From NCBI GenBank assembly GCA_965649115.1, contig CBFGJN010000040.1:1-18061 (forward strand): DNA of 18,061 nucleotides. Direction: 5' to 3'. Position 1 is the stretch's first letter, and each line of letters opens with the position of its first letter. Made by a program: the position numbers and the translations under genes. This document shows positions 52 through 17,595 of the stretch, piece after piece. The notes beneath the pieces are model-generated. The model saw only the letters and a program-made list of their open reading frames with translations. It was not told the DNA's origin and made no database searches. Source of the DNA: a candidate division WOR-3 bacterium (lineage in GTDB: Bacteria > Hydrothermota > Hydrothermia > LBFQ01 > DSFT01).

Positions 52-108
52 GCATTTTAGAGCCAAAGCTTTAAAAAATAAGTAATTTTAGAATTACTAG
101 ACACAGCA
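52..108 (+). repeat. Partial copy A of the MITE-like repeat (right end)
   Basis: GCATTTTAGAGCCAAAGCTTTAAA...TTTTAGAATTACTAGACACAGCA matches the hairpin-2 region and right end of copy B. Confidence 0.75.
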
Positions 109-136
109 ATAACTTAAATTTTTTAGACTTTAAAAT
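98..136 (+). promoter_or_regulatory. Putative leaderless promoter of atpA: TAGACA-N27-TAAAAT-N7-ATG
   Basis: Hexamers at 98-103 and 131-136; no Shine-Dalgarno before ATG 144. Confidence 0.65.
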
Positions 137-143
137 TTTCGCT

Positions 144-1943
144 ATGGCTGAAATTACAAGAATAGCTGGTGTTCTTGTTGTTGGAAAAGGATTAAGAGGA
201 GCAAGAATGAATGAGATTGTTAAGGTTGGAAAGGAAAAACTTGTAGGTGAAATAATAAGATTAAAAGGTGATACTGCTTATATTCAAGTTTATGAAGATA
301 CTTCAGGACTTTTCGTGGGTGAGCCAATTGAGAGAACAAATGAATCATTAGCAGTTGAACTTGGTCCTGGTTTACTTGGAAAAGCATTTGATGGAATACA
401 AAGACCATTAGATGTTATAATGAATAAAGTTGGTCCTTTCATAACAAGAGGTATAGATATTCCTGCACTTGATTATGAGAAAAAATGGTTTTTCAAACCA
501 ATTCTTAAAGTTGGTGATAAAGTTAAATTGGGTTATATAATTGGTGAGGTTCAAGAAACACCATCAATTGTCCATAAAATAATGATTCCACCAAATTTAA
601 AAGGTAAAACTGAACTATCAAAAGAGGATTTAGAAGAAACTTTTACAATTTTAGATATTAAGGAAGGTGAATTTACAGTAAAAGAAACAATAGCAATTAT
701 AAGAAGTGATATTGAAAAGAAAGATTATGAGATAAAACTTTCTCATAAATGGCCAGTAAGAATACCAAGACCTGTTATAAAGAAAGAACTGCCAATTATT
801 CCATTATTAACAGGCCAAAGAATTCTTGACACACTATTCCCAATTGCTCTTGGTGGAAATGCTGGTCTTCCTGGTGGTTTTGGAACTGGAAAAACGGTAA
901 CAGAACAAACTCTAGCAAAATATGCTCTCGTTGATGTTGTAGTATATATAGGTTGTGGTGAAAGAGGAAATGAAATGACAGAAGTTCTAACAGAATTTCC
1001 ACACCTTGAAGACCCTTCAAGGCCAGGAGCACCTCTAATGGACAGAACAATATTAGTTGTTAATACATCAAATATGCCCGTTGCTGCAAGAGAAGCATCT
1101 ATATACACAGGTATAACACTTGCGGAGTATTATAGAGATATGGGATATAATGTTTTACTTTTAGCTGACTCAACAAGTAGATGGGCTGAAGCATTAAGAG
1201 AATTATCTTCAAGACTTGAAGAAATGCCTGGAGAAGAAGGTTATCCAACTTATTTATCATCAAAATTAGCTGCGTTTTATGAAAGAACTGGAAGAGTTAA
1301 AACATTAAGTAATTTTGAAGGTTCTGTAACTGCTGTTGGAGCTGTATCTCCACAAGGTGGAGATTATTCAGAACCTGTAACCCAATCAACACTTAGAGTT
1401 GTAGGAGCATTTTGGGCACTTGATTCAAACTTAGCAAGAAGAAGACATTATCCTGCAATAAATTGGTTAAGAAGTTATACACTTTATTATCCATTAATTG
1501 AAAAATGGTACAAACAAAATGTAAATGAGAGATGGAGTGAGCTTAGAAACTTCATCAGCAGTATATTACAAAAAGAAGCAGAATTACAAGATATTGTTCA
1601 GTTAATAGGTCCTGATGCTTTACAAGAAATGGAAAGATTAATTCTTGAAATTGGAAAAATTATAAGACTTGGTTATTTACAACAAAACGCATTTAATCCT
1701 ATTGATGCAAGTTGTTCATTAAAAAAACAATTTTTAATGATGAAAGCAATTTACGATTTCTACAATATCCTTAAATCTGCTATTGAAAGTGAACTTATAT
1801 CTGCTGATGAAATTGAAAAATTGCCACAAGTTGAAAGAATTATAAGATTAAAGGAAGTAGAGGAGGACAAAGTAGAAGAAGAAATAAACAATATCCTAAA
1901 TTCTTTAAAAGAAGAACTAAATCAGAGGGAAAAAGCTGCTTAA
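144..1943 (+). CDS. atpA: V/A-type ATP synthase catalytic subunit A
   Basis: Walker [50 protein letters not shown] and [10 protein letters not shown] motifs; 599 aa including the V/A-type non-homologous region. Confidence 0.98.
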
Positions 1944-3597
1944 TATAATTCTTTCTCAAATACTAATAATTAAAGAAATAAATATCAACGGAAATAATTT
2001 TTTTAACAAAAAAGAAATTTTTGAAATACTAAAAATAAAAGAAAATTCAGAGTTTAGTAAAGTTAGACTAAAAAGTGCAATTTCAAGACTATATAGCAAG
2101 TACTATTCTTTCGGTTTTTTCAATGTTAAAATAAATTACAATTATGAGTTTTTGGAGATGGGAAATGTTGTTATAAGTATAAACATAGATGAAGGTAAAA
2201 GATTTTATATAAAGGAAATTCAATTTGAAGGAGACAGCTTATTAGATACTCTTATTCGCATTATCCCGAAAAAATTACCAATTGCTTATTCTGATGAATT
2301 TGTTAATAATTTTGAAAGTCAAGTTTATTACCTTTACTACAATAATGGATTTCCTTTTGTTAATATATTAAGAGATACCATTCTTGAAAGTGATAGTTTA
2401 ATAACGATTAAGGAGAAAATTAGTGCAGGTAAAAGGATAATAATAAAGCAAATAAAAATTGAAGGAAATAAAAAAGTAAGAGATGCTATATTTTTTAAAG
2501 AAATCACAATAAAAGTTCCAAGCTATTTTAACTATAATCAAATCATTCAATCAATTCAAAGAATATATTCTTTGAGGTTATTTAAAAGTGTAAATTATAA
2601 AATTGAAAATGATAGCATTTTAGTCTTTCAAGTGGTTGAATCACCTGAAAGATATTTAGAAACAAATTTTGGTTTTACATATCCTTACTTTTTAAATATC
2701 AGTTTTCTTATCGGACACTTAAATATATTTGGAAATGTCCAGAATTTAGAACTTATAACAAATGGACTTTTTAGTTGGACAGATAATAAAATTTTATTAA
2801 ATGATAGGTTAATTAGTTTAAATTTTAGAGAACGATATTTTCTTGATATGAAAAATTTATTTCTTAACTCAAATATCATTTATAGTAAAACAGGTCAAAT
2901 TGGGCAGATTGAAGACTACGGTAAAATTGAAGAAATTGGATTAAATGCTGAAATTTTAAGACAATTCTCAAATTACTTTTATAGTGCTTTTAGCATATTG
3001 TTAAAAAATAGTATAACGCTTGGATATGAAGATAGAAGAATTATATTAACATTATCTCAAAGAGTTGTTTATGATGATAGAAATAGCTATTTAGATGCTA
3101 CAAAAGGTTTTGTTTCAAGTTTTTCAATTTCAGAAGCTTTCATTCAAGCAAAATTTATAAAACTTAACGAATTGTATTCAAAGTACTTTTATAGTTTTGC
3201 ATTTAGGATAAGGATGGGTCAAATTTTTGGCAGTGATATTCCGTATTCTGAAAAATTCTTTCTTGGAGGTGAAGGAAGTGTTAGAGGTTATTTAAACAAT
3301 TCAATTGGAGAAACTTTTGATAACTTGCAACCTGCAAGTAATCATTATATAAATGGTAATTTTGAATATAGATGGAGATTTAGCGATTTTTTTGGAATTA
3401 CATTTTTTTATGATTTTGCTATCGTTTCAAACGAATTTATTAATTTAATAAGAAACAATGTTTATAGTGGCTATGGAATTGGATTTCGTTTTTATATTAA
3501 CTTTATACCCATCCGCTTTGATTTCGCGTTAAATCCAGATTCAAAAATTTTACCAAAAGATTTATTTATCTATTTTAGTATAGGACAAATGTTTTAG
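1936..3597 (+). CDS. Omp85 (BamA/TamA) family outer-membrane protein with POTRA domains; start extended upstream of the ORF-track call (2152) to a CTG
   Basis: POTRA-like repeats ([27 protein letters not shown]), [12 protein letters not shown] loop motif, C-terminal FSIGQMF. The frame is open from 1921 (TAA at 1918-1920); CTG at 1936 follows AGAGGGA at 1924-1930. Family is confident, exact start less so. Confidence 0.9.
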
Positions 3598-3616
3598 AAA
3601 TTTGTTTTAATGAACC

Positions 3617-3822
3617 TGCTTTGTCCAATAATTATTGTTAAGCGATTGATAATCAATAATTTATAAAATTTTTAAGGAAATTGTTGATTTATTGGGGGGA
3701 TTATTAGGGGGGCTTCGCCCCCCAAAAGCAAAAAACGGGTATTTTAAAGCCGAAGGCTTAAATTTAGGGTGGGTGGGGAAAATATAGAAATAATCATATT
3801 TTTAGAATTACTAGACAAAACA
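3617..3822. mobile_element. Intact MITE-like element (copy B, 206 bp)
   Basis: Terminal inverted repeats TGCTTTGTCCAATAATT (3617-3633) and AATTACTAGACAAAACA (3806-3822) match at 14/17. Flanked by the exact direct repeat TAATGAACC (3608-3616, 3823-3831). No coding capacity. Confidence 0.85.
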
Positions 3823-3850
3823 TAATGAACCTTATTTTTTGCTTTAAAAT
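3812..3850 (+). promoter_or_regulatory. Putative leaderless promoter of ptsH: TAGACA-N27-TAAAAT-N7-GTG
   Basis: Hexamers at 3812-3817 and 3845-3850; start fixed at 3858 by His15/Ser46 numbering. Confidence 0.65.
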
Positions 3851-3857
3851 TTTAGAA

Positions 3858-4127
3858 GTGTATTACAAAAGGGTAGTAATTGTTAATAAACTTGGAATCC
3901 ATGCAAGACCTGCTACAAAAATTTCGGAAATTGCAAATAAATTTAATTCTGAAATATATATAGAAAAAGATGGAATTTGTGCAAATGCCAAAAGTATCTT
4001 AGGGATATTGATGCTTGTTGCTCCTAAGGGAACTGAACTTATAATAAGAGCAGAAGGACCAGATGAAGTTGAAGCTGTTGAAAGCATAGCAAAACTCATA
4101 GAAGAAGGATTTGGTGAAGAAATATGA
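3858..4127 (+). CDS. ptsH: Phosphocarrier protein HPr
   Basis: GIHARPA and NAKSILG motifs. Starting at GTG 3858 places the phospho-His at residue 15 and the regulatory Ser at residue 46, the canonical numbering, so 3858 rather than 3825 is the start. Confidence 0.96.
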   Translation: MYYKRVVIVNKLGIHARPATKISEIANKFNSEIYIEKDGICANAKSILGILMLVAPKGTELIIRAEGPDEVEAVESIAKLIEEGFGEEI

Positions 4128-5650
4128 ACGAGAAAATAAAGAAATTGGAAGAATTGAAAAAGAAAGCATATGAAGGTGGAGGAAAAAGCAAAATCGAAGA
4201 ACAACACAAAAAAGGCAAATTAACAGCAAGAGAAAGATTAGAGATATTATTAGATGATTTTGATGAAGTGGATTTATTTGTTGTCCATCAAGCTCATGAT
4301 TTTGGAATTGATAAAAAGAAATTCTTAACAGATGGGGTAATAACGGGTTTTGGAATTATTGATGGTAGAAGAGTAGCAGTATTCTCACAAGATTTCACAA
4401 TATTTGGAGGGACAGTATCAAAAACAAATGCTCAAAAAATTGTAAAAATTATGCAAATGGCTCTTAAAGTTGGAATTCCTATAATAGGTTTAAATGATTC
4501 AGGAGGAGCAAGGATACAAGAAGGTGTATCAGCACTTGGAGGATATGGAGATATATTTCTACATAATGTTTTAGCAAGTGGTGTTGTTCCTCAAATATCA
4601 GCAATACTTGGACCTTGTGCAGGTGGAGCGGTTTATTCACCAGCCTTAACTGACTTTATATTTATGAAAAGAGAAACAAGCTATATGTTCATAACAGGTC
4701 CAGATGTTGTAAAAGCAGTAATGCACCAAGATGTAAGTTTTGAAGAGCTTGGAGGAGCAGATGTTCATGCAAGCATATCAGGAATAGCTCATTTTGTTTA
4801 TGATAAAGAAGAAGAATTATTATTATCAATTAGAAAACTTTTAACTTATTTACCTTCAAATAATTTAGAAAATCCACCTTTTGTTCAAACTGATGATGAT
4901 CCAAATCGTGAAATTCCCGAATTAGATGATATTATTCCAATAGAACCAACTGAACCATATGATGTAAAGGAAATTATTAAAAAAGTTTTAGATGAAGAGA
5001 CATTTTTTGAAGTTCAAGAAAATTTTGCTCAAAATATTGTAATTGGATTTGGAAGAATTGGAGGACATGTAGTAGGAATTGTAGCAAATCAACCTTTACA
5101 TTTATCAGGTGCATTAGATATTAAGGCATCTGTAAAAGCTTCAAGATTTGTTAGATTTTGTGATTGCTTCAACATACCAATTATAACATTTGTTGATGTT
5201 CCTGGATTTATGCCAGGTGTTGAGCAAGAACATGGTGGAATTATTAAGGAAGGAGCTAAATTGATTTTTGCTTATGCAGAAGCTACTATTCCAAAAATAA
5301 CAATTGTTTTAAGAAAAGCTTATGGAGGAGCTTATGATGTAATGGGAAGCAAGCATTTAAGAGCGGATATCAATTTAGCTTGGCCAAGTGCGGAAATAGC
5401 AGTTATGGGACCAGAAGGAGCAGTTAAAATTCTATATAAAAAGGAAATAGAAAAACTTGAAAATTTAAATGAGTTTATAAAAGAATATAGAGAAAAATTT
5501 GCTAATCCTTATTATGCTGCAAGTTTAGGATTTATAGATGATGTTATAAGACCTTCTAAAACAAGAAAAATTATTTACAATTATCTTCAACTTCTTGAAA
5601 ATAAAAGACAAACATTACCATATAAAAAACATTCAAACGAACCCCTGTGA
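4124..5650 (+). CDS. Acyl-CoA carboxyltransferase subunit (propionyl-CoA carboxylase beta / methylmalonyl-CoA decarboxylase alpha family)
   Basis: GKLTARER, DSGGARIQEG, GPCAGGAVYSPALTD, DVPGFMPG, RKAYGGAY and C-terminal KKHSNEPL; ATGA overlap with the HPr stop. Confidence 0.95.
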   Translation: MNEKIKKLEELKKKAYEGGGKSKIEEQHKKGKLTARERLEILLDDFDEVDLFVVHQAHDFGIDKKKFLTDGVITGFGIIDGRRVAVFSQDFTIFGGTVSKTNAQKIVKIMQMALKVGIPIIGLNDSGGARIQEGVSALGGYGDIFLHNVLASGVVPQISAILGPCAGGAVYSPALTDFIFMKRETSYMFITGPDVVKAVMHQDVSFEELGGADVHASISGIAHFVYDKEEELLLSIRKLLTYLPSNNLENPPFVQTDDDPNREIPELDDIIPIEPTEPYDVKEIIKKVLDEETFFEVQENFAQNIVIGFGRIGGHVVGIVANQPLHLSGALDIKASVKASRFVRFCDCFNIPIITFVDVPGFMPGVEQEHGGIIKEGAKLIFAYAEATIPKITIVLRKAYGGAYDVMGSKHLRADINLAWPSAEIAVMGPEGAVKILYKKEIEKLENLNEFIKEYREKFANPYYAASLGFIDDVIRPSKTRKIIYNYLQLLENKRQTLPYKKHSNEPL

Positions 5651-6744
5651 AAATTGCTATATTTTCTGAAAGTTTTCTACCCTTAAAAACAGGTGTTGCA
5701 AAATTCACATATGATTTATGCTATTACTTAAAGAAAAGAGGACATGATGTTATTTTGATAACAGGAGATTTTGGAATTAATTACAATTTTGATTTTGAGG
5801 TTGTAAGAATTGGAAAAATTTCAAAAATTTATGCTAATGGAAGTTGGACTTATTTTATATTACAAAATCCTATTTCTTTCTATGAGAATTTAAAGAAAGT
5901 TTTAAATTATTATAAAATTGAAATTTTTCATAATCAGGGACCTCTTGGACCACCATATTCTGTATTAAGTTCATTTTTTGCTAAAAAAATAAACAAAAAC
6001 ATAAAAACAATTGGAACATTTCACTCAAAACAAATGAAAATAACCACTAGCTTAAAGCTATATTCAAATTTTGTTAAAAAATTCATAAATTACAACGATA
6101 TTTTAACCGCTCCAAGTAAATCAACTGCTAATGAAATGAAATATATATTTAATGTAAATCCTATTGTAATTCCAAATGGTATAAATTTAGAAAAATTTAA
6201 TTGTAATTGTAAAAAATTTGAAGATAATTCATTTAAAATTTTGTATGTTGGAAGACTTGATTATAGAAAAGGTGTTGATATTCTTTTAAAGGCATTTGAA
6301 AAAATAAATAATGATAAATTTGAGCTTTGGATTGTAGGAAGTGGTCCTTATAAAAAAATTGTTCTTGAATACATTGAAAAATATAAAAATATAAAACTTT
6401 TTGAAAATGTTGAAGATGAAGAATTAGTTAATTTTTATAGTAATTGTGATATTTGTGTTTTTCCAACAAGAGGAGGTGAGGCTTTTGGCATTGTCTTGCT
6501 TGAAGCATTTGCTTGTGGTAAGCCTGTAATATGTTCAAACATAGATGGTTATAATGAGGTTGCTAATGAAGATTGTGCTTTATTTTTTAAGAATATGGAT
6601 TATGAAGATTTAGCAAACAAAATTCTTTTGTTATATAATAATAAAAATTTAAGAGAAAAACTTTCAAAAAACGCCCTTCAAAGAGCTAAAAATTTTGATT
6701 GGAACAAAATTGTTTTAGAATTTGAGAAGACATATCTTATATAA
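5647..6744 (+). CDS. Glycosyltransferase family 4 (GT-B, PimA/RfaB-like)
   Basis: MKIAIFSESFLP..GV N-terminus, VIPNGI, YVGRLDYRKG, and GGEAFGIVLLEA (EX7E motif); GTGA overlap with the upstream stop. Confidence 0.93.
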   Translation: MKIAIFSESFLPLKTGVAKFTYDLCYYLKKRGHDVILITGDFGINYNFDFEVVRIGKISKIYANGSWTYFILQNPISFYENLKKVLNYYKIEIFHNQGPLGPPYSVLSSFFAKKINKNIKTIGTFHSKQMKITTSLKLYSNFVKKFINYNDILTAPSKSTANEMKYIFNVNPIVIPNGINLEKFNCNCKKFEDNSFKILYVGRLDYRKGVDILLKAFEKINNDKFELWIVGSGPYKKIVLEYIEKYKNIKLFENVEDEELVNFYSNCDICVFPTRGGEAFGIVLLEAFACGKPVICSNIDGYNEVANEDCALFFKNMDYEDLANKILLLYNNKNLREKLSKNALQRAKNFDWNKIVLEFEKTYLI

Positions 6745-6844
6745 TTTTCTATATTTTGCTCACCCACCCTGAATTTAAGCCTTCCGCTTATAAATGCCCA
6801 TTTTTCGGCAGAGGGGGGCTTTGCCCCCTGAATTCCTCCATAAA
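6741..6844 (-). repeat. Internal fragment copy C of the MITE-like repeat, inverted, between convergent genes
   Basis: TTTCTATATTTTGCTCACCCACCCTGAATTTAAGCCTTCCGCTT...GGGGGGCTTTGCCCCC is the near reverse complement of 3690-3795. Confidence 0.85.
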
Positions 6845-6852
6845 GTCCATAT

Positions 6853-7279: not shown

Positions 7280-7280
7280 A

Positions 7281-10130
7281 TTATTTCACATAAAATTTTG
7301 TCCTTTGATCTTCAACATCAACAATATATGCTCCCGACTTTAAATTATTATCAATCGTTATTTCATTTATACCTTTCAATTTAACATCAAATTCCTTTTC
7401 AAGGACGATTCTTCCTGAAAAATCAAAAATTCTTATTTTGTAATTTTTTATCTCATCTGCATAGAATCTAATTGTAAATTTTTGACTTTGCTTAATAGGA
7501 TTCGGATAAACTAAAATGTTAATTTTTTTAATACTTGGAAAATCTGAAATCTCATTATAATTTAAAAATGAATAAAATAACCGATTATTTGAGATTAAAG
7601 ACCAAAAATAAATGTTATTTTTAATATCAGAATAAGCAAAAGTACTATCTGTTATTATTGGATAAACTTCATTAAAACCTTTTGAGTAGTTAAAAATGAA
7701 TGAATTGAAAATGATATTTGTATCTGAACTTAAAGCAAATGAAGTTCTTTCACTTATAAAGCCCATCAAAGCACCGTTGAAATCATATTTATAAATTCCA
7801 TTTTTTGTAATTACTAAAATTCCATTTTGAAAATAACTTAAAGCAATAGGCTTACTTTTTAAACGGACTTGATTTAAAACATCTAAATTTCTATTTAGTA
7901 TCCAAAGATAATTATTTGTAGCTGTAAAAATTCTATCTTTTAAGATAATAGGCATTATTTCAATAGGATTTGGTAAAATTTCAAGTTCTTTTGATTTTAT
8001 TATATTTAATTCACCATCAATAATATAGAATGTTCCATCAATTCCTTGAAGATAAATTGTATCATTTTTAATTAAGAAACATGTTGAAATAGGAAAGCTT
8101 AAATAAACTGACTTATAAATTGTTTGACTTACTGGATTAAATAAAATAAGTTTTCCTTCATCTGTTCCAAAAAGGATATAATTTTTTAGTTTTCTTAAAC
8201 AACTTCTAATTGGAAAATTAACATTCTTTGTCCAATTATTTGAAAATGTGTTTGAAATTAAAAAACTATATAAATTACCATCAGTTCCTCCTAAATAAAC
8301 CTCATAAGTTCCATTATTATCAAAGTCTTCAATAATCGGTGGATATTTAAATAAATAGGGATAGAATGTGAAATCTCTAAATTGAATGAATGTTTTAACC
8401 AATGGTTGATTATAATAGCTTTGACCATTCTTTTTAAAAAGATAAAGTTCAGAGTAAATTCTAACGCTATTTGTATTTTTATCAAGTGTATCAATATGAC
8501 CATCAAAAAGAACAATAATTAAGCTATCTTTTAAATTAAAAAATTGCCTTTGAAACTTATAATTTTCATTACCAAAATAAATTTTTGATAATTTTTCATT
8601 TTTAATTTTAAAACTCATAATGTTTGAAACACTCGATATATCGTAAATTTCAAAACCTGTCAATTTATTTTCATTTGATTTGATTGAAGGATAAGTGAAA
8701 TCACTTATGCTATTTCTATTACCATTATAAAATGGATCATATTTTGAACCTTTCCAACCTTCTGGAAACTTTATAAAATATTGAAAATCTGGAACGCCAT
8801 CTGCTTCAATTAAAACAACACCCATTGGTCTATTACTTTGAAAATCAGGCCCTAAACTATCTATGATATTCCTATCAACATGCCATATTAAAATTCCTTC
8901 ACCAGGTAAGGCATAATCCCATTCCTCATCATATATACCAAATATTAACGAACTATCATTATTGTAAATAAAATTAACTTTTTTATCTTCAATTTTTTCT
9001 CTTTTTCTAAACTCAATTAAAAGATATTCTTTATTATCAAATTCAATTTTATAAAATTGTGGATAAAATGAAGATGGAAGGATATTAAATACTTGTTCAT
9101 TTTTAGAAGGTTGAATTTTTACAAGTTCATTAGGCATAATAATTCTTTGACATGATGGACAAATTAAATTTAATATGCTATCCATATAAATTTTTGTATA
9201 TGCACCTGGTAATGTCGGTAAATAACCCTCTGGAATGTTATCAATATCTCCACCATAACCACCAACAGCCATTAAATCAAAATAACCTGCTCCTGTCCCA
9301 AGTCCCGAATAATCATATAAATCATCAACAAAGAAAATTAAGTGATTTAATTCATGAACAGCTGTTCCTTGAAGTCCTATATTTAAACCATCTTGTCTTA
9401 GTGTTTGTGGAATTAATGTTGCATCATAAATTGTATCATTTCCATTATTCACAATAATATAAGGTTCTCCAAGATAATAATCTAATGCTCCTGCAAAAAT
9501 TGTAAGAGCTGGCAAATCATAAGGTGTATCACCATTTACATCAGTTTGATAAGCTGAACCTGCATAAAATATAACAATTCTTCTAAATATAAGCTCACCA
9601 GGTTGTGGATTACAATAAGCTAAATTATTATTTGAAAATATACCCATTTGATCAGCACTTCTAATAGCATCTCTAAAAAATGATGTTATACCTTGTGCGA
9701 AAAATCCTAAATCTCCATAATATCTAATTTTATGTGGAACTTTAACAATAGGAGAAACTGAATATTTAAATTTAATTCTATGATAAGTTGCAGAGAGAAA
9801 GTAATTTTTTGAAAACTCTAAAATTGAAGAAAAATATAAGCTATCATAAGGTGGTTTGAAATCAAAAGTTCCCTTAATACCATAACTTGTTGTATCAAAT
9901 GTTCCATCACCAGTAGTAAGTGGATCATCGGGGATTTCTTTTTGAAATTCAACTCTTAATGCCAATATACAAATTGTTAAGGTATCGTTTTGAAAAGTAC
10001 CAAATTTATTTTTATAAAATTTAAGTTGGTTTATCCTTTTATTGAAAAATAGCATTTGCTTTTCAACATAAGAAAATTTTTCAAATAGCTTTTTATTTAA
10101 ATCCAAATTGCTAAAAAGAAATAAAATCAT
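7281..10130 (-). CDS. Secreted M6 (immune inhibitor A)-like zinc metalloprotease with beta-propeller-like region and T9SS/Por-type C-terminal sorting domain
   Basis: ILALRVEF, HELNH..DDLYD zinc motif (9356-9342), FDLMAVG Met-turn-like, EYLLIEFR, GILIWHVD, LIEADG; C-terminal VYPNP...IRIFDFSGRIV...LKSGAYIV. Confidence 0.88.
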   Translation of the reverse strand: MILFLFSNLDLNKKLFEKFSYVEKQMLFFNKRINQLKFYKNKFGTFQNDTLTICILALRVEFQKEIPDDPLTTGDGTFDTTSYGIKGTFDFKPPYDSLYFSSILEFSKNYFLSATYHRIKFKYSVSPIVKVPHKIRYYGDLGFFAQGITSFFRDAIRSADQMGIFSNNNLAYCNPQPGELIFRRIVIFYAGSAYQTDVNGDTPYDLPALTIFAGALDYYLGEPYIIVNNGNDTIYDATLIPQTLRQDGLNIGLQGTAVHELNHLIFFVDDLYDYSGLGTGAGYFDLMAVGGYGGDIDNIPEGYLPTLPGAYTKIYMDSILNLICPSCQRIIMPNELVKIQPSKNEQVFNILPSSFYPQFYKIEFDNKEYLLIEFRKREKIEDKKVNFIYNNDSSLIFGIYDEEWDYALPGEGILIWHVDRNIIDSLGPDFQSNRPMGVVLIEADGVPDFQYFIKFPEGWKGSKYDPFYNGNRNSISDFTYPSIKSNENKLTGFEIYDISSVSNIMSFKIKNEKLSKIYFGNENYKFQRQFFNLKDSLIIVLFDGHIDTLDKNTNSVRIYSELYLFKKNGQSYYNQPLVKTFIQFRDFTFYPYLFKYPPIIEDFDNNGTYEVYLGGTDGNLYSFLISNTFSNNWTKNVNFPIRSCLRKLKNYILFGTDEGKLILFNPVSQTIYKSVYLSFPISTCFLIKNDTIYLQGIDGTFYIIDGELNIIKSKELEILPNPIEIMPIILKDRIFTATNNYLWILNRNLDVLNQVRLKSKPIALSYFQNGILVITKNGIYKYDFNGALMGFISERTSFALSSDTNIIFNSFIFNYSKGFNEVYPIITDSTFAYSDIKNNIYFWSLISNNRLFYSFLNYNEISDFPSIKKINILVYPNPIKQSQKFTIRFYADEIKNYKIRIFDFSGRIVLEKEFDVKLKGINEITIDNNLKSGAYIVDVEDQRTKFYVK

Positions 10131-11602
10131 CCACTAATAAACCTATTTAAAACATTATTAACAAAATCAAGGACAATTGAAGGATAAATTCCTATAAAAA
10201 TTACAAGAACTAAACATAAAGCAGTTATGAACAATGGTAAATAAGCAAATTTAACCTCCTTTTCGCCATCAGAGAAAACATAATAAACTACTCTTAAATA
10301 ATAATAATAAGAGATAACACCATTAATAAAGAGCCAAATTGCAAGTCCAATATCACCAACATTGACAATAGAATAAGCAATATAAAATTTCGCAAAGAAA
10401 CCTGCAAGGGGAGGGATACCTGCAAGTGAAAGCATAAATAAAGCAAAGCTAATTGCTATAAATGGACTTTTCTTATATAAACCTTTTAAATTTTCTATGC
10501 TTGTGTCATCTTCAGCTACCATTTGAACAATTGAAAATGCTCCGAATGTTGTTATTGTATAAATGAATAAAAATAATATAATTGATTTAAAACCTTCAAT
10601 TCCTCCCGAATAAATTGCTGTTAATCCATAACCAGCATTAGCAATCGTTGAAAATGCTAATAATTTTTTAATACTATTTTCTCTTATAGCAGCCAAATTA
10701 CCAATAATCATAGTAAAAACACTAATCCATAAAATTAAATCTTCCCATAGCTTTGGATATGAACTAAAAACACCTTGAAACAGTTTTAGAACAATTGCAA
10801 ATGCAGCCGCTTTTGATATTGTTGAAATATAACTTGCAGTTGGAGATGGGGAACCTTCAAATACATCAGGTGTCCAGAAATGAAAAGGAACAGCAGATAA
10901 TTTAAAACCAAGACCCACAATTAGAAATCCTATTGCGATAATTGATAAGAAATCCTTTGATTTAAGTAATCCAAAGAAACTTCTAAAAGCATAATTTTGA
11001 AATAAACTCTCAAATGACAAACTACCACTAACAAAATATAGAAATGCTATTCCTACTATCAAAAAGGAGCTTGAAAATGCCCCAATAAAAAAGTACTTTG
11101 TTGCTGCTTCATAAGAAAATAAACTTCTTTTATATCCTACAAGAGCATATAATGAAAACGAAAGAATTTCAAGTGATAAAATAAAAACTGCCCAATTCTC
11201 ACTTTTTGGAAGCAACATTGAACCAAGAAGAGCAGAAAATATAAGGAAATAATAATCACCACCAGACCTATTTTTATAATAATCATAAGATAGCATTACA
11301 AAGAAAATTGTTCCAATTAAGAAAATTAAATCAAATAATCTTTCAATTGGTCCAAATTTTAAACTTTCAATTATATATTTTGCATATTCATAATTTTGAG
11401 CAGTTTTAAGTAATTCTTGAAAAAACTCCTTATTCATTTTAAGTAACTGTTCAAAAACAAAATAGGTTGAAATAAATAAAAGAATTAAAGAAATCAAAAA
11501 AGCTATTAAACCTTTCCTTGGAAAAAGAATTTCTATAATTAAAAGTAATATAATACCAATTGAAACTGTTATTTCAGGTGAAAAGAAGTAAAAGATGTTC
11601 AT
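10127..11602 (-). CDS. nuoN: NADH-quinone oxidoreductase subunit N
   Basis: Polytopic membrane protein with EAATKYF, GFKLSAVPFHFWTPDVFEGSP, SLAGIPPLAGFFAKF and YYYLRV. Confidence 0.96.
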   Translation of the reverse strand: MNIFYFFSPEITVSIGIILLLIIEILFPRKGLIAFLISLILLFISTYFVFEQLLKMNKEFFQELLKTAQNYEYAKYIIESLKFGPIERLFDLIFLIGTIFFVMLSYDYYKNRSGGDYYFLIFSALLGSMLLPKSENWAVFILSLEILSFSLYALVGYKRSLFSYEAATKYFFIGAFSSSFLIVGIAFLYFVSGSLSFESLFQNYAFRSFFGLLKSKDFLSIIAIGFLIVGLGFKLSAVPFHFWTPDVFEGSPSPTASYISTISKAAAFAIVLKLFQGVFSSYPKLWEDLILWISVFTMIIGNLAAIRENSIKKLLAFSTIANAGYGLTAIYSGGIEGFKSIILFLFIYTITTFGAFSIVQMVAEDDTSIENLKGLYKKSPFIAISFALFMLSLAGIPPLAGFFAKFYIAYSIVNVGDIGLAIWLFINGVISYYYYLRVVYYVFSDGEKEVKFAYLPLFITALCLVLVIFIGIYPSIVLDFVNNVLNRFISG

Positions 11603-13059
11603 TTTTCACCTCCTTTTTTTATAATACTCACAATATGTTCAGAAGGTTTTTGTAAAAATTTAAAAATGAAATTTGGATATATTCCAATAGAAAAAATAAG
11701 AATAATTAATGGCGTTAAGATAAACCATTCTCTTATGTTCAAATCTTTGATTTTTTCAAATTTAATTTCAAGATATGATATTTTCTGAAATGCAGGAAGC
11801 ATATAAATAACAGAAATAACAATTCCTAAAACTGCAAATATAGCCCAAGAAAAATTCTTCAAACTTACACCAAGAAGAATAAGAAACTCTCCAATAAATC
11901 CATTAGTTCCAGGAAGACCGACTGATGATAACATAAATAAACCAAAGAAAACAATTAAAACAGGAACTGTCTTAGCAAGACCTCCAAATTCAGAAATACT
12001 ATTCGTTTTAAATCTTTCATATAGAAATCCTGAAACTAAAAATAAAGCAGATATTATTATTCCGTGATTTAGAATTTGGATACTTGCTCCATTTATTCCA
12101 TAACTATTTAGTGAAAATATTCCAAGTGTAATAAAGCCCATATGTGAAAATGAAGAAAAAGCAATTAACCTCTTAAAGTTATCTTGAACATAAGCCATAA
12201 ATCCACCATAAATGATTGAAATTATTGATAAAATAGCAAAAATATAAGCATAATCAATTGAATAACTTGGAAATAGAGGAATTAAAAATCTTAAAAAACC
12301 ATAACTTCCAATTTTTGCCATAATACCTGCAATAATTAATGCCACACTACTTGGAGCGTTAGTATAAGCATCAGGAAGCCATGCATGGAAGGGGAAAATT
12401 GGTGTTTTTACAGCAAAAGCAATTGCAAAGGAAACAAAAATTAGTAATCCTAAATTATCTTTTAGTAGTGGAATTTGTTCTAATAAATCCAAATAATTTA
12501 AAGTCCTAAATTGTAAGTAAATGATAATTATTGAAACAATAAGTAAAACAGAAGCAAAAGCTGTATATAATAGAAATTTAAAACTTGCTTTAACTTTATC
12601 ATTATCACCCCAAATTAAAATTAAAAAATAAGCAGGAATTAAAGAAAATTCGTAAAAAACAAAAAATAAGAATAAATTTAGTGAAGAAAAAACACCAACT
12701 AATGAACCAGTTAAAAACAAATACCAAAACGCAAATTCATTTTCTCTATTTTTAATTAAATTAATTGAAGAAAGAAAGCCTAAAAAAGATAAAAATGTTG
12801 TTAAAACAATAATTAGATAACTTAAACCATCAACGCCAAGATAGTAATCTATATTTAGACTTTCTATCCATTTATATCTCTCAATAAATTGGAAATTCTC
12901 AGAAAAATTAAAATTTCCAAGAGGTAAAAGACTTAACAAAAATTCAAATAATAGAACAACAGACGACCAAATCCAAACAAAGTTCCTATTCTTTATAAGC
13001 AGTAAAAGCAAAGATGAAAAAATAGGGAAAAATATAAGAATAGTTAAAATCCCATTCAT
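11599..13059 (-). CDS. nuoM: NADH-quinone oxidoreductase subunit M
   Basis: LGVDGLS, FFVFYE, AFAVKTPIFPFHAWLPDA, KRLIAFSSFSHMG and GLPGTNGFIGEF motifs; AGGAGG ribosome-binding site at 13071-13066. Confidence 0.96.
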   Translation of the reverse strand: MNGILTILIFFPIFSSLLLLLIKNRNFVWIWSSVVLLFEFLLSLLPLGNFNFSENFQFIERYKWIESLNIDYYLGVDGLSYLIIVLTTFLSFLGFLSSINLIKNRENEFAFWYLFLTGSLVGVFSSLNLFLFFVFYEFSLIPAYFLILIWGDNDKVKASFKFLLYTAFASVLLIVSIIIIYLQFRTLNYLDLLEQIPLLKDNLGLLIFVSFAIAFAVKTPIFPFHAWLPDAYTNAPSSVALIIAGIMAKIGSYGFLRFLIPLFPSYSIDYAYIFAILSIISIIYGGFMAYVQDNFKRLIAFSSFSHMGFITLGIFSLNSYGINGASIQILNHGIIISALFLVSGFLYERFKTNSISEFGGLAKTVPVLIVFFGLFMLSSVGLPGTNGFIGEFLILLGVSLKNFSWAIFAVLGIVISVIYMLPAFQKISYLEIKFEKIKDLNIREWFILTPLIILIFSIGIYPNFIFKFLQKPSEHIVSIIKKGGEK

Positions 13060-13065
13060 TTTCTT

Positions 13066-13095
13066 CCTCCTTTTGAAAAGTTCAAAATTTTATAG
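13066..13095 (-). promoter_or_regulatory. Putative -10 box (CTATAAAATTTT) and AGGAGG ribosome-binding site of nuoM
   Basis: Minus-strand TAAAAT at 13092-13087 in the same context as the other -10 boxes, followed by a short leader with a strong Shine-Dalgarno. Confidence 0.55.
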
Positions 13096-13156
13096 CTTAA
13101 AAAATTTTCATAAGAACACAAAAGCCGCCAGCAGAAAAATGAGTATTCTAATGATT

Positions 13157-13217
13157 TAATTTATAAAAATTTTTTTGAAATTATGGGCGGGAAAATAAAG
13201 AATTATTGGACACAGCA
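13157..13217 (+). repeat. Internally deleted copy D of the MITE-like repeat
   Basis: TAATTTATAAAAATTTT (as at about 3657-3673) joined to TGGGCGGGAAAATA..AGAATTATTGGACACAGCA (right end). Confidence 0.75.
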
Positions 13218-13243
13218 AAAAATCCAAATTTAAACTTTAAAAT
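13207..13243 (+). promoter_or_regulatory. Putative leaderless promoter: TGGACA-N25-TAAAAT-N8-GTG
   Basis: Hexamers at 13207-13212 and 13238-13243; GTG at 13252; no Shine-Dalgarno. Confidence 0.6.
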
Positions 13244-13251
13244 TTCGCAAA

Positions 13252-13974
13252 GTGATTACTTTTCTTTTTTCTACAATTGTAAGGCAGGAAACTTTTGGTA
13301 TTTCAAGTTTTCTAATTCCTGATGAAAATGAAAGAGTAGTTTTCCCATCTTCACAAACATTATTTTCTAATGTTATTCAATTTGAAATTACATATAAAAG
13401 TGCATTTTTTACATTTCCAATCCTTGAAAATTTAAATTATAGTTTTTATTTTGATACAATTTATGGAATTGGCACAGCTTATAAATTTGAAAATTTTTCA
13501 TTAGGCTTTAATGGTTTTAAGTTAGATAGTGAATTTTTGTTTAATTTTGGTGCTTATGTAAATTACAATAATTTTGAAAGTAAGTTTTCTTTAAATTATA
13601 AAAATAATCAGAACTTTGGTTTAAGAAGTTTTTTTAAATTGTCATTCTTTGAGCAATATAGCTCAAGATTATATTTAGAATACCAAAATAATTTAGATGC
13701 TATTATTGGAATTTTTTATGAACCTTCTAAATATAGATTTTTAAGTTTTGGATTATCAAAAATTGATAATAACTATTTTTCTTTTAGTAGTTTAGAAGTC
13801 TTAATTTTTAGAGATTTTTTAACACTTAGAGGGAGTGTTTATGAAGACCTTAAAAACAATAAGTTATTCTTAAATTATGGCTTTTCAATAAGTTATGAAA
13901 ACTTGAGAGGTGATTTTATTGTAAATAAAGATGCTTTCAAGTTGGGAATTTATTATAAATTTAATATGTTTTAG
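13252..13974 (+). CDS. Hypothetical protein, probable outer-membrane beta-barrel
   Basis: 240-aa ORF rich in aromatic residues and Gly with alternating amphipathic strands (FSLGFNG, FNFGAYVNY, LNYGFSISY, FKLGIYYKF) and a terminal Phe. Confidence 0.65.
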   Translation: MITFLFSTIVRQETFGISSFLIPDENERVVFPSSQTLFSNVIQFEITYKSAFFTFPILENLNYSFYFDTIYGIGTAYKFENFSLGFNGFKLDSEFLFNFGAYVNYNNFESKFSLNYKNNQNFGLRSFFKLSFFEQYSSRLYLEYQNNLDAIIGIFYEPSKYRFLSFGLSKIDNNYFSFSSLEVLIFRDFLTLRGSVYEDLKNNKLFLNYGFSISYENLRGDFIVNKDAFKLGIYYKFNMF

Positions 13975-14014
13975 TTTATTTTAATAGTTGAATGATTGCT
14001 GGATTTTTAAGAAA

Positions 14015-14087
14015 TAAAGCTGAAAGCTTATTTTCAGGGTGGGAAAAATAAGAAATAATGATATTTTCAGAATTATTGGACATAGCA
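14015..14087 (+). repeat. Partial copy E of the MITE-like repeat (right half)
   Basis: TAAAGCTGAAAGCTTATTTTCAGGGTGGGAAAAATAAGAAATAATGATATTTTCAGAATTATTGGACATAGCA aligns with 3745-3822. Confidence 0.85.
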
Positions 14088-14115
14088 CCCCCAAAGCATA
14101 GTTATCGTTTAAAAT
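14077..14115 (+). promoter_or_regulatory. Putative short-leader promoter: TGGACA-N27-TAAAAT-N11-ATG
   Basis: Hexamers at 14077-14082 and 14110-14115; ATG at 14127. Confidence 0.6.
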
Positions 14116-14126
14116 TTTCTATACTT

Positions 14127-14441
14127 ATGATTTTGCTTTTTATAAATTGTATATGTCAAAATTTAAATTTCTTTCAAGCTCTTGAAAAAGCAGATATGGT
14201 ATTTGAGGGGATTTTAGTAAAAAGTGATAGTTTATTGACTTTTAAAGTTATAAATTCTATAAAACAAACAAGTGATACACTTTTAGTAATTTATAATGAT
14301 AATGAATGCCCCTATAACTTTGAATTGAATAAATTATATAGGGTTTTTGTTAAAAAGGAGGGAAATAAATTAATAACAGATAAATGTTTTGGTAATGAAA
14401 AGATTGAAGATTATGAGGAAATTAGAGACTATTCAGAATGA
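14127..14441 (+). CDS. Small exported protein of TIMP/NTR-like (OB-fold) type
   Basis: CxC near the N-terminus followed by ADMVFEG, ECPYNF...YRVF and a fourth Cys (DKC), the pattern of prokaryotic N-TIMP homologues. ATG 14127 is preferred because ATG 14058 lies inside the repeat, upstream of the -10 box. Confidence 0.7.
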   Translation: MILLFINCICQNLNFFQALEKADMVFEGILVKSDSLLTFKVINSIKQTSDTLLVIYNDNECPYNFELNKLYRVFVKKEGNKLITDKCFGNEKIEDYEEIRDYSE

Positions 14442-16038
14442 AGTTATTTTGGAAGTTCTAAGAAAAAGAGGAATTGATGAAAATTATTTAGAATTTATGT
14501 TAAATGCAAAAATAGAAGATATTGAGGACCCTTTCAATTTAGAAAACATTGATTTGGCAATAGATTTAATAATAAAAAATATAAAAGAAGGAAAACCAAT
14601 TTTGATACATGGTGATTATGATGCGGACGGAATAACATCCTTAGCACTTCTTTATAGAGCATTAGAAAAAATTTATGATAAGAATAAAATTATTCCATAT
14701 ATTCCTAATAGGTTTAAAGAAGGTTATGGATTTTCAGAAAATTCAATAAAAATTGCAAAAGAATACAATTCTAAACTTATTATAACTGTTGATTGTGGCA
14801 TAACAGGACTAAATGAAGTAAAAAAAGCAATAGATGAAAACATAAATGTTATAATAACAGACCATCATGAGCCATTAGATATCCTACCAAATGCATCCGC
14901 TATAATTCATCCTAAAATAAGTCCAAAATATCGTTTTAAGCAACTAACAGGTGTAGGTGTTACATTTAAATTAGTAATGGCTCTTTTTAAAAAATTTAAT
15001 GTTAATATAAACAATTTACTTTGGGACTTGGATTTGGTTTCTCTTGGGACAATAGCAGATATGGGTGAATTAACTTATGAAAATAGAATTCTTGTTAAAT
15101 ATGGTCTTGTTGTTTTAGAGAGAAGTAAGAAAGCAGGAATAAAAGCAATAAAATATATTTCTGGTATTAAGGAAAAAATTTCACCATGGCATATTTCATT
15201 TATTATTGCTCCAAGAATAAATGCTGCTGGAAGAATGTCTGACCCGATTTATTCTTTTAAATTACTTACCTCAAAAAGCGGTAAGGAGGTTCTTGAAATT
15301 TCAAAAATTTTAAATGAATTAAACAGAAAAAGGCAAAATGAAGAGAGAAAAATAATTGAATCTATAAATAAACAAATAAAAGAAAAATTAAATAACTATG
15401 TTCTTGTCTTAGATGATTGGGGATGGCACGAAGGTGTAATTGGTATAGTTGCAAGTAAAATTTGTGAAAAATTCCATAGACCTACAATTATTATTTCTAA
15501 ACTTGGAAAGTTTTCAAAAGGCTCTTGTAGAAGTATTGAGGGTTTTCATATTCAAAAGGCACTTATGGAATTATCTCATTTACTTGAAGAATTTGGTGGT
15601 CATAGTATGGCAGCGGGATTTACTATTAAAACGGAAAACATAGAATCATTTAAAAAGGAAATTGAAAAAATAGCAAGAAGAGAATTGAAAGAATATCATT
15701 TAAGGAAAATTTTTAATTATGAAGCTGAACTTAAACCAAGTGATATAAATAAACAATTCATAATAGACTATACAAAATTATCACCATTTGGTATAGGTAA
15801 TGAACACTTTACTTTCCTCCATAGAAATTTAAAGGTTATTTCAATTGAAAAGTACAAGAGAAGTCTTGAAATTTTATTCTCAAATGGGAAGATTAAGTTC
15901 AAAACGAAAATTTTTCAACCTGAAAATGATTGGTTTGAATTGAAAGTTGGTGATATTGTAGATTTAATTTTCAAATTCACTGATAACTTTATATCAAAAG
16001 AAGGCTTTAACATTAAAGCTTTAAAATTTATAAAATGA
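14413..16038 (+). CDS. recJ: Single-stranded-DNA-specific exonuclease RecJ
   Basis: GDYDADG, PNRFKEGYG, ITVDCG, ITDHHE (DHH), LGTIAD, PRINAAGR and GGHSMAAG (DHHA1). Start uncertain between 14389 and 14413. Confidence 0.96.
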   Translation: MRKLETIQNEVILEVLRKRGIDENYLEFMLNAKIEDIEDPFNLENIDLAIDLIIKNIKEGKPILIHGDYDADGITSLALLYRALEKIYDKNKIIPYIPNRFKEGYGFSENSIKIAKEYNSKLIITVDCGITGLNEVKKAIDENINVIITDHHEPLDILPNASAIIHPKISPKYRFKQLTGVGVTFKLVMALFKKFNVNINNLLWDLDLVSLGTIADMGELTYENRILVKYGLVVLERSKKAGIKAIKYISGIKEKISPWHISFIIAPRINAAGRMSDPIYSFKLLTSKSGKEVLEISKILNELNRKRQNEERKIIESINKQIKEKLNNYVLVLDDWGWHEGVIGIVASKICEKFHRPTIIISKLGKFSKGSCRSIEGFHIQKALMELSHLLEEFGGHSMAAGFTIKTENIESFKKEIEKIARRELKEYHLRKIFNYEAELKPSDINKQFIIDYTKLSPFGIGNEHFTFLHRNLKVISIEKYKRSLEILFSNGKIKFKTKIFQPENDWFELKVGDIVDLIFKFTDNFISKEGFNIKALKFIK

Positions 16039-17492
16039 ATTATATAAGCTTAATTGATATTATTATTACAATTTACAAAAGATTAAAAATTTTTTTGATA
16101 TTTTTGTTGATTCCAATTTTTCTCTGCTTAATTTATATTCTTATTACAAAACCAATATATAATCCCACTGCTATTGTAAAGGCTAATATATATGAAACTG
16201 TTCCTACTTGGATAGCAGATTTATTACAACAGAGACTTGTCCCTTCAACACCTGTTGACAGAATGGCAAGTCAAGTGGAACTTATAAAAGTTTTATCTAA
16301 AAATGTTTTAAAGGAAAACGGTGTTAATGTTGATTTTAAATTCAATAAAAACTACTTCAAAGTTATTCATAAGAGAGCAATTGTTGATACAATTAGGAAA
16401 AATTTAAGTTTTAAAATTATTTTTTATCCTGAAAGTATTTTGGTTTTTGAAAAGAGCAAAATTTTATGCTCTGGAAAATTTGAAGATACAATAAATTGTA
16501 ATTATTTTTCATTTGTTATTAAAAAATTGAAAAATTTCAATAAACCTTTTGAAGGCAAAATTACTTATAAAAATCCACAACTTACTATTGATGAATGGGT
16601 GAAAAATAGAATAAATGTTAATCAAATTGGTATTAGTGATTTAATTAAAATAAGTGTTGAAAGTGATAATCCTGAATATGCTGTAAAATTAGTAAATAGT
16701 ATAGCAAAGGAATATGTTAATTACTCACTTGAAGAGGAAAAACGATTAGCAAGAGAAACAAGGAAAAGACTTGAAGTGTTTTATGAGGAAGCCCAAAAAA
16801 GGGTTGATTCTTTGAAGAAAATTATAAAAGCCTTAAAAGTAGATACCTTATCACTTGTGACTTATATTTTAGATTTTGGTCTTGGTAATGAACCTATGGC
16901 AAGAATTGTTGAAAGATATTTTAGTAATCCTGGTGATGAGATTCTTAAAAAGGTTTCAAGAGAGTATGTAAATAAGTCTTTAACACTTGAAGAGATATTT
17001 AGTGCATATAATATGCTTGTTGGTCAAAGAAATGGCCTTATGTCTGCTATTGAAAATACAAAGCTTGTAGAAGCAAAAAGTGTTTCAGTTGCTCAAGTCC
17101 TTGAATATGCCATAATTCCTTCCAAACCAAAATGGCCAAAAAAATTTTTACTCTTAATTCTTTCATTTATTTTTGGAATAGTTTTTTCTACAATTTTAAC
17201 ACTAATTTTTGATAGACTTGATAAAAATGTATTTACCACTACTAAATTAAAGTCAATTTTAAATGAAAATGTTAGGGTATTTTATAACTTTTCAAGTTTA
17301 AAGTTTTATCTTATTTCAAATGGTTTTTCAAAAATATATTCAAATGAAAAAATTGATAATTTTGAAAGTGCTAATTTGCAAGAGGCAGACTTAGTCTTAA
17401 TTGTTTTAAGAAAACCAATAAGTGAAGATGAATTTATTAAACTTATAAAACTTTCAAAAAATAAAGAAAAAGTTATTTTTATTCCAATTTAA
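16035..17492 (+). CDS. Polysaccharide co-polymerase (Wzz/Wzc/GumC-like) without a recognisable kinase domain
   Basis: N-terminal TM followed by KPIY, a periplasmic coiled-coil region, Pro-rich PSKPKWPKK before a second TM, and a short cytoplasmic tail. Confidence 0.8.
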   Translation: MNYISLIDIIITIYKRLKIFLIFLLIPIFLCLIYILITKPIYNPTAIVKANIYETVPTWIADLLQQRLVPSTPVDRMASQVELIKVLSKNVLKENGVNVDFKFNKNYFKVIHKRAIVDTIRKNLSFKIIFYPESILVFEKSKILCSGKFEDTINCNYFSFVIKKLKNFNKPFEGKITYKNPQLTIDEWVKNRINVNQIGISDLIKISVESDNPEYAVKLVNSIAKEYVNYSLEEEKRLARETRKRLEVFYEEAQKRVDSLKKIIKALKVDTLSLVTYILDFGLGNEPMARIVERYFSNPGDEILKKVSREYVNKSLTLEEIFSAYNMLVGQRNGLMSAIENTKLVEAKSVSVAQVLEYAIIPSKPKWPKKFLLLILSFIFGIVFSTILTLIFDRLDKNVFTTTKLKSILNENVRVFYNFSSLKFYLISNGFSKIYSNEKIDNFESANLQEADLVLIVLRKPISEDEFIKLIKLSKNKEKVIFIPI

Positions 17493-17494
17493 TT

Positions 17495-17562
17495 TGCTTT
17501 GTCCATAGCCTTATTTTCAGAGTGGGCGGGGAAAATAAGGAATAATCATATTTAATTTGACA
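17495..17562 (+). repeat. Internally deleted copy F of the MITE-like repeat directly upstream of the rRNA promoter
   Basis: Left end TGCTTTGTCCA followed by CTTATTTTCAGAGTGGGCGGGGAAAATAAGGAATAATCATATTT; the right end is degenerate. Confidence 0.8.
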
Positions 17563-17595
17563 ATTTGAATCATTTTTGAACTTGTGCTTTAAAAT
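17557..17595 (+). promoter_or_regulatory. Putative rRNA promoter: TTGACA-N27-TAAAAT
   Basis: Perfect TTGACA at 17557-17562 and GCTTTAAAATTTT with the hexamer at 17590-17595; no TAnnnT at 16-18 bp spacing. Confidence 0.6.

Follow-up and report, generated by a model that had tools for sequence, protein, structure and literature searches.

Described promoter-homing systems and the present locus

The insertion of mobile elements beside promoters, known as promoter homing, has been described for Mutator-like transposases, the TnGBS integrative and conjugative elements, ISLre2 (p-MULT 3) and the ISKra4 group, and a link to RNA polymerase has been proposed for homing of the TnGBS type (PMC3942029). 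Here we describe a stretch of 18,061 nt (the window), contig CBFGJN010000040.1 of assembly GCA_965649115.1 from a candidate division WOR-3 bacterium, in which a sequence-only reading had picked out five promoters with a -35-like hexamer about 27 bp, not 17 bp, from the -10 box, and had attributed the spacing either to a holoenzyme or activator reading one helical turn further out or to a mobile element inserting at a fixed distance. That reading pooled two different things, namely element ends (hexamers at 98, 3812, 13207 and 14077) and a native box upstream of the 16S rRNA gene (17557). Very probably, the ends of a promoter-homing MITE (a miniature transposable element with inverted repeats) or of its parent insertion sequence (IS) at four sites, together with the native box at the fifth, account for the pattern. 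The homing element is well supported as a pattern, a general 27-bp promoter is not supported, and the native box is a new lead.

As far as the available portions of the source go, TnGBS, ISLre2 and ISKra4 appear to be the closest precedent, the promoter-homing habit being common to both (PMC3942029). Those elements use a Mutator-like transposase and land about 16 bp (15-17) upstream of the -35 element, whereas here the transposase is of the IS5/IS903 type and the element ends 22 nt from the -10 box, where a -35 element would lie. Where the repeat pairs of TnGBS, ISLre2 and ISKra4 are near-perfect, orientation is reported to be lost (PMC3942029), yet in the present element orientation is strict although the terminal 14-17 bp or so are nearly identical. 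What would be new is that an unrelated 300-aa IS5-type enzyme without an extra domain homes to promoters, and in a different register. Neither a promoter-homing IS903-type element nor the native box was found in the literature searched, most subscription journals lying outside it.

All ten hexamers stand where the sequence-only reading had placed them, with spacers of 27, 27, 25, 27 and 27 nt (throughout, the -10 assignment and the insertion register are derived from sequence, and spacings are counted in nt to TAAAAT). The window holds five T[TAG]GACA-N-TAAAAT sites, against a mean of 0.22 and a maximum of two in 500 local shuffles, and the spacer histogram of the source genome (G000; 1.85 Mb, 27.6% GC) bears out the pattern, with 156 such sites at 27 nt, 49 at 26 nt and about 8 elsewhere. 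The 27-nt peak is made up of TAGACA (80) and TGGACA (74); TTGACA occurs only twice at 27 nt and three times at 17 nt. It is also correct that no TTGACA-like hexamer stands at 17 nt, every site having at most two of six matches there, and that none has a TGn; the 16S site conforms at 17 nt but carries TTGAAT (4/6) at 19 nt. The conserved unit exceeds six bases and forms a 17-mer extending 5 nt past the hexamer, which four sites fit with 0-1 mismatches and the 16S site with 8. A profile over 145 sites reads AGAATTAYTRGACAMAGCA, then 22 unconserved bases, then CTT-TAAAAT-TTT. Terminal repeats account for 141/156 of the 27-nt sites, and the 16S site is one more; the remaining 14 are neither, several of them resembling truncated ends, with a background of about 5. 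The idea of a mobile-element by-product thus stands for four of the five window sites and for 141/156 genome-wide, but fails at the 16S site.

The best-preserved anatomy is that of a complete 206-bp MITE at 3617..3822 (+), with terminal inverted repeats at 3617-3633 and 3806-3822 (TAGACA 3812-3817 in the right one) and identical 9-bp target-site duplications at 3608..3616 and 3823..3831 (both +). It ends 22 nt from the -10 box at 3845..3850 (+), itself 7 nt before the GTG (3858) of HPr. At 92..108 (+) lies the right terminal inverted repeat (repeat family D1; 0 mismatches to the 17-mer; TAGACA 98-103) of a truncated element of which a remnant from about 62 persists; this repeat ends 22 nt before the -10 box within the extended motif CTT-TAAAAT-TTT at 128..139 (+), 7 nt before the ATG (144) of V/A-type ATPase subunit A. 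The right terminal repeat of another remnant, at 13201..13217 (+; 0 mismatches; TGGACA 13207-13212), stands 20 nt before the -10 box at 13238..13243 (+), which precedes by 8 nt the GTG (13252) of a 240-aa open reading frame (ORF) with no Pfam match. Finally, a right-end remnant at 14015..14087 (+; 79% over 73 nt), with its terminal repeat at 14071-14087 (+; one mismatch; TGGACA 14077-14082), lies 22 nt before the -10 box at 14110..14115 (+), 11 nt before an in-frame ATG at 14127. An internal MITE fragment without intact ends (6746..6828, -; inverted repeat I1) is 79.5% identical over 83 nt to the 3617-3822 copy.

The 17-mer, allowing at most two mismatches, occurs 928 times in the source genome, compared with 16-17 times in three shuffles. 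Ends facing outward as terminal inverted repeats form 274 pairs, 120 of them 200-209 bp apart, and these MITE copies are flanked by an exact 9-bp target duplication in 102 cases and an 8-bp one in 10. Used as a single query, one MITE copy accounts for at least 4.3% of the genome sequence. There are about twice as many right ends as left ends (488 vs 250). Many contigs end inside element copies, so that all these element counts are lower bounds; some arrays are possibly misassembled. Short, non-coding, present in high copy number and sharing its terminal repeats with an IS, the element has the hallmarks of a MITE. The longer element, seen as 16 identical right ends and 10 left ends at contig ends, has both termini in common with it; a reading frame starts in the left end, and its full-length counterpart is P0002, a protein of 300 aa with PF01609 and PF13737 (E 5e-25 and 2e-20), whose nearest named relative is ISHysp1 (43% identity). 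Such a DDE transposase (PF01609/PF13737), 17-bp repeats (range 15-27 bp) and a 9-bp duplication are the features of the IS903 group, and the parent would on sequence grounds be an IS5-family, IS903-group element. Close relatives span about 0.9-1.03 kb, and IS903-group elements 1,050-1,054 bp (PMC3281130); a DDE transposase of about 300 aa, short repeats and a 9-bp duplication are common to the present element and the group, as would be a single ORF and an element length of about 1 kb, while fixed-distance promoter homing and a MITE family set the present element apart. The shared ends, the orientation and the register suggest that the MITE is mobilized in trans by a P0002-type transposase. A Mutator/ISLre2 transposase was rejected as mobilizer: PF00872 was not found in the source genome and P0002 has no such domain.

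Placement of the element ends and the host promoter

Distances from end to box were available for 252 oriented copies, with 187 free right ends and 137 free left ends. No fewer than 110 of the right ends lie 20-23 nt from TAAAAT (78 at 22 nt), 35 lie at 13-16 nt and none at 24 nt or more, while 4/137 left ends are found at 20-23 nt (Fisher test on end placement, p = 2e-28, with the left-end count taken as 5 to include one at 24 nt). For the autonomous IS, 11/16 right ends are at 21-22 nt and three more abut another element, as against 0/10 left ends. We hypothesize that the element inserts right end first, the 9-bp duplication starting 22 nt upstream of TAAAAT. The hexamer, which mimics a -35 box, sits within the right terminal inverted repeat: it ends 5 nt inside the element, and 5 + 22 gives the 27 nt. 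Box-associated copies with a 9-bp duplication lie at 22 nt in 41/65 cases; among copies whose right end is free and whose duplication measures 8 bp, 6/9 lie at 21 nt. Both figures hint at a promoter-side cut fixed 13 nt from the box. There is probably a second preference, for insertion beside end-like sequence, yielding both a 14-nt register and tandem arrays spaced by 9 bp, since TGC directly follows the duplication in 18/41 copies of the 14-nt class (1/157 otherwise) and more than 100 ends of each kind adjoin another end at 9 nt. Head-to-tail stacks of elements are indeed present in the source genome; the spacers between them measure 9 bp, and some do not match the flanks.

Anatomy, duplication, register, orientation and distribution are matters of direct observation; that insertion is targeted during transposition we infer, because selection alone would give neither a peak one base wide nor a choice of one of two like ends. 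As to how the promoter is found, we lean slightly towards a transposase positioned by promoter-bound RNA polymerase; that the transposase itself reads the extended -10 DNA has an appreciable chance, though one well below even. A combined account seems to us improbable. In it, TTGNCA 24-27 nt upstream of the -10 box would be read at strong promoters of this genus by some host factor, perhaps the holoenzyme, whose sigma region 4.2 is altered, and an RNA polymerase-tethered transposase would land TRGACA there to supply a partial upstream element; were it true, the element would home to, and retune, some 40% of host promoters.

Some findings weigh against the homing interpretation or its attribution. 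An exact duplication is lacking from 153/274 paired ends, and 42/187 free right ends have no nearby box. The full IS is not assembled in the source genome, P0002 being from another assembly and 90-100% identical to local N-terminal fragments. No element end accompanies any of 40 motif copies inside genes, a count that is confounded by selection. Lastly, the control described below for more distant transposases used the -10 pattern of this host, and as the hosts concerned may use other promoters, host and transposase effects are confounded.

Comparison with related genomes locates the habit more closely. Within the genus (five genomes, G000-G004), the 26/27-nt pattern occurs 199 times in G000, 83 times in the MITE-rich G002 and 1, 0 and 3 times in G001, G003 and G004; in 56 other relatives it occurs at most 6 times each. 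G003 has at least one full element copy. At the ATPase promoter the box is retained but no element is present in G001, G003, G004 and G005, while G002 has an end 14 nt away; at the HPr promoter G002 carries an element at 22 nt, and G001 and G003 carry none. Among transposase relatives from other assemblies at 60-74% identity, the distance between right end and -10-like box is 22 nt in six of seven cases, with one further end, read by eye, at 14 nt. These near transposases form one clade (support 100/100 in a tree of relatives), with clade-specific columns at about residues 220-250 and in the C-terminal tail, and homing was seen only in this clade; the 22-nt register is absent from 36 more distant rows, which include 22 distinct elements with the same TTGGACA end. 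It is a property of one transposase clade or of its hosts, and the hexamer, being present on distant elements without the register, is inherited with the repeat. A homing clade and an apparently non-homing sister clade with the same ends would make a natural pair for studying how transposases find promoters, and an enzyme of this kind might serve as a tool for inserting cargo without breaking genes. The exact IS-end pattern had no match in metagenomes, and P0002 as a lone query gave none in genome contigs, where an alignment query succeeded. A 44-aa transposase fragment has no Pfam match. The transposase gene of the source genome (C50:14008-14223, L001) has TAAAAT a few bases before its ATG, and so uses the leaderless promoter type of its host.

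TAAAAT precedes ATG by 6-11 nt in 72, 116, 33, 79, 54 and 32 cases, against about 8, and stands 7-20 nt before 32/46 tRNA/tmRNA genes, nearer than 7 nt to none, the box being lacking in 13. This spacing to start codons and tRNA genes indirectly supports TAAAAT as the -10 box of the host. Of 1,598 called ORFs, 504 have TAAAAT 5-12 nt upstream; an element end lies within 60 nt in 210 of these, at 21-22 nt in 135, leaving 294 element-free gene starts, which show no motif at any upstream position (maximum 0.06 bits). With -10 motifs 6-11 nt before starts and no -35 element, they have the features of leaderless, -10-only promoters. A scan for the sigma70 consensus gave 113 sites and 109 in shuffles. 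The main host promoter would accordingly seem to be an extended -10 element, VCTT-TAAAAT-TT (the strict box), mostly leaderless and mostly without a -35 element; each of the five genus genomes has the motif before ATG 210-308 times. One RNA run contained 21% of the words, in the form of contigs. As far as the available text of PMC12340547 describes them, the leaderless promoters of Deinococcus-Thermus are similar in having a -10 motif a few bases before the ORF and a dispensable -35 element; the present putative promoter motif differs in being longer, stricter and enriched in the genus. Within the window an element-free box at 16022..16027 (+), 7 nt before ATG 16035 and with no upstream hexamer, serves as a control. 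Region 4.2 of RpoD in the five genus genomes (C12:23549-24277 in G000, L184; L185-L188) reads L[DE][DE][IV]AxELxISRERVRQ, compared with a consensus of LEEVGxxFGxTRER in 22 relatives, and these genus-specific residues coincide with mostly -35-less promoters.

A holoenzyme that reads a -35-like hexamer one helical turn further out as its general promoter would explain the sharp peak at 27 nt, and might draw support from those substitutions in region 4.2, from the perfect TTGACA that four genus genomes carry at 26-27 nt in their 16S promoters and from the TTGACA that two genomes of another family have at 29 nt. The sequence-only reading had looked to repeat-free promoters and to RpoD for a decision, and both speak to the contrary: the 294 element-free gene starts have no upstream motif, and the alignment of RpoD with sigma70 of E. 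coli is gap-free between regions 2 and 4 inclusive (residues 248-527). So do the congeners G001, G003 and G004, which share the -10 motif but have the pattern at background level. Across 377 element-free strict boxes, an exact TTGACA stands more often at 17-19 nt (6) than at 26-27 nt (2), and the 16S promoter has a 17-nt spacer in 11 genomes of the class. The exception to the missing long-spacer hexamer is the native box, present at five promoters of the source genome. We consider a general long-spacer promoter highly improbable. The activator variant of the idea fares better at the 16S site only, where the native box is conserved without an element, and fails at the other four.

That TAAAAT is no promoter box and merely the target motif of the element is harder still to credit: the motif is nearly palindromic and anchors the insertion distance, but the strong peak 6-11 nt before ATG and the tRNA/tmRNA spacing are not those of a mere target, and the motif is equally common in congeners with few elements. 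Untargeted insertion followed by selection, keeping copies that spare promoters or bring the hexamer into a useful register, is in keeping with the absence of ends beside in-gene motif copies, with the excess of right ends and with the report that outward promoters can reside in IS903-group ends (PMC3281130). Sparing, however, would permit any greater distance, yet 0/187 right ends lie at least 24 nt from the nearest box. The hexamer is on both ends, but only right ends face promoters. Its conservation beside promoters is no higher than inside arrays (p = 1.0), so that selection on the hexamer shows no signal, and none of 148 promoter-side ends reads TTGACA. We regard the selective account as very unlikely. 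IS-derived hybrid promoters, in which a -35-like hexamer in the element end lies beside a host -10 box (PMC3281130), are alike in layout, but the spacing here is 27 or about 19 nt, not 17; a distance giving 17 nt occurs at 3/210 gene starts with an element end. Motif searches in element-rich genomes can thus invent promoter elements.

The native box at the 16S rRNA promoter

The fifth site belongs to the promoter of the 16S rRNA gene, the 5' part of which lies at 17658..18061 (+; Rfam RF00177) behind a -10 box at 17590..17595 (+). A 19-bp box, TTTAATTTG-A-CAATTTGAA, occupies 17551..17569 (+), with TTGACA at 17557-17562 and its centre at 17560 (about -42); its right arm runs into a -35-like TTGAAT (17565-17570, +), 19 nt from the -10 box. 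In G001, G002 and G004, TTAATTTGACAAYTTGA is kept 26-27 nt upstream of the 16S -10 box with no element present. Because the box is conserved without an element and differs from the repeat at 8 positions, it was rejected as a decayed element end, and its position off the 22-nt register speaks against an old duplication footprint. The register common to its hexamer and the element end is probably a coincidence. An internally deleted element remnant at 17495..17553 (+), with the start of the left repeat and right subterminal sequence and the right repeat missing, lies upstream of the box, and there is no element at the orthologous site in G002. In this one case (17495-17560) the remnant was apparently inserted about 41 nt from the -10 box, not 22, leaving the native box intact.

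In general form the box is TTTAATTTG-N-CAAnTTGAA, 19 bp. It was found at five promoters in the source genome (0.09 expected), at 17 in G001-G004, at none in G005 and at one in the control. The 22 element-free promoters of the five genus genomes serve 16S, 23S, tRNA-Met and several other genes. The first hexamer (TTGACA, TTGCCA or TTGTCA) always lies 8 bp before a second TTGAWW, mostly TTGAAA, and its spacer to the -10 box is 22 (1), 24 (2), 25 (8), 26 (2) or 27 nt (9); the downstream arm doubles as a -35-like TTGAAA at 16-19 nt. Three positions left free in the search are invariant in 17/17 sites outside the source genome and mirror the other arm, the symmetry extending over positions 1-3, 5-6 and 8-9. 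A matrix trained on the other genomes ranks three promoter sites of the source genome first, centred at -40, -42 and -42 (taking TAAAAT as -12 to -7), the window site being third; matches of at least 19 bits number seven, against one in shuffles. The native unit occurs 26 times in the five genus genomes and four times in the 56 others. Among 25 16S loci, 11 outside the genus have a 17-nt promoter, three in the genus have 26-27 nt and two have TTGACA at 29 nt; the other nine yielded no promoter or too little upstream DNA. In the two at 29 nt (L239 in G021, L230 in G033), TTGACA stands 29 nt from TATAAT and a weaker TTGATC at 17 nt, so that a perfect hexamer beyond the -35 position, on its upstream side, occurs in a second family. 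Three box-like matches in genus g5 were dropped, being by eye plain TTGACA-N17-TATAAT on the other strand.

Mirrored flanks around a variable base are typical of a dimer site. We suggest that the native box is most likely a putative binding site for a dimeric regulator that would boost rRNA, tRNA and a few other promoters from a class II position; to our knowledge, its sequence fits no described operator. Class II activators bind centred at -41.5 (PMC10853779), and the box would resemble the sites of CAP described in the available part of that source in being roughly symmetric, centred at -40 to -42 and adjoining or overlapping the -35 element, although unlike the named sites it is limited to one genus in the sample. 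Several points count against this reading of the box: positions 4 and 7 are not complementary, so that there is no clean palindrome, an 8-bp direct repeat fits the box equally well, four of the seven best matrix matches lack an adjoining strict -10 motif, and only about 11 locus groups underlie the 22 sites. The main rival for the 16S site is a doubled -35 element read by the polymerase, with two sigma-4-type hexamers 8 bp apart bound by the holoenzyme or, in the manner of an UP element, by the C-terminal domain of the alpha subunit; we hold this, taken together with a repressor operator, to be a tentative possibility that deserves to be kept in view. Both hexamers are -35-like, the unit can also be read as a direct repeat AAnTTG, and by eye a weaker -35 element is preceded at 12 bp by TTGACA in the two genomes of the other family. 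Against it stand the mirroring of the free flanking positions around the variable base and a centre at the class II activator position (PMC10853779), and so conserved a site repressing rRNA and initiator-type tRNA promoters would be less expected. If the box is indeed a regulator site, it points to a putative regulator that would act on the synthesis of stable RNA in this uncultured lineage.

The 23S gene of G001 (C7, L171) has a native-box promoter of its own, and the rRNA genes thus appear unlinked; the site at C8:41966 in the source genome is probably the matching 23S promoter. Several native-box promoters (C91 and C18 of the source genome; L172, L175, L177, L181, L182) are followed by conserved leaders of 200-400 nt, for which there was no Rfam match and which are possible non-coding RNAs.

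Neighbouring features

On the minus strand, -10 boxes at 13087-13092 and 17-22 diverge from the sites at 13238 and 131, with no element end facing either. Promoters of their own serve the genes of ATPase subunit A (144-1943) and HPr (3858-4127), and the genes lying upstream of them change from congener to congener (also L029-L038), a sign that gene order in the genus is heavily shuffled. Contig ends C1, C66 and C74, and likewise C28, C75 and C82, of the source genome carry two more repeated sequences, possibly collapsed mobile elements. The window also encodes, at 7281-10130 (-), a 949-aa protein with a C-terminal secretion tail (PF18962) and an HELNH motif, which we take to be suggestive of a metalloprotease.

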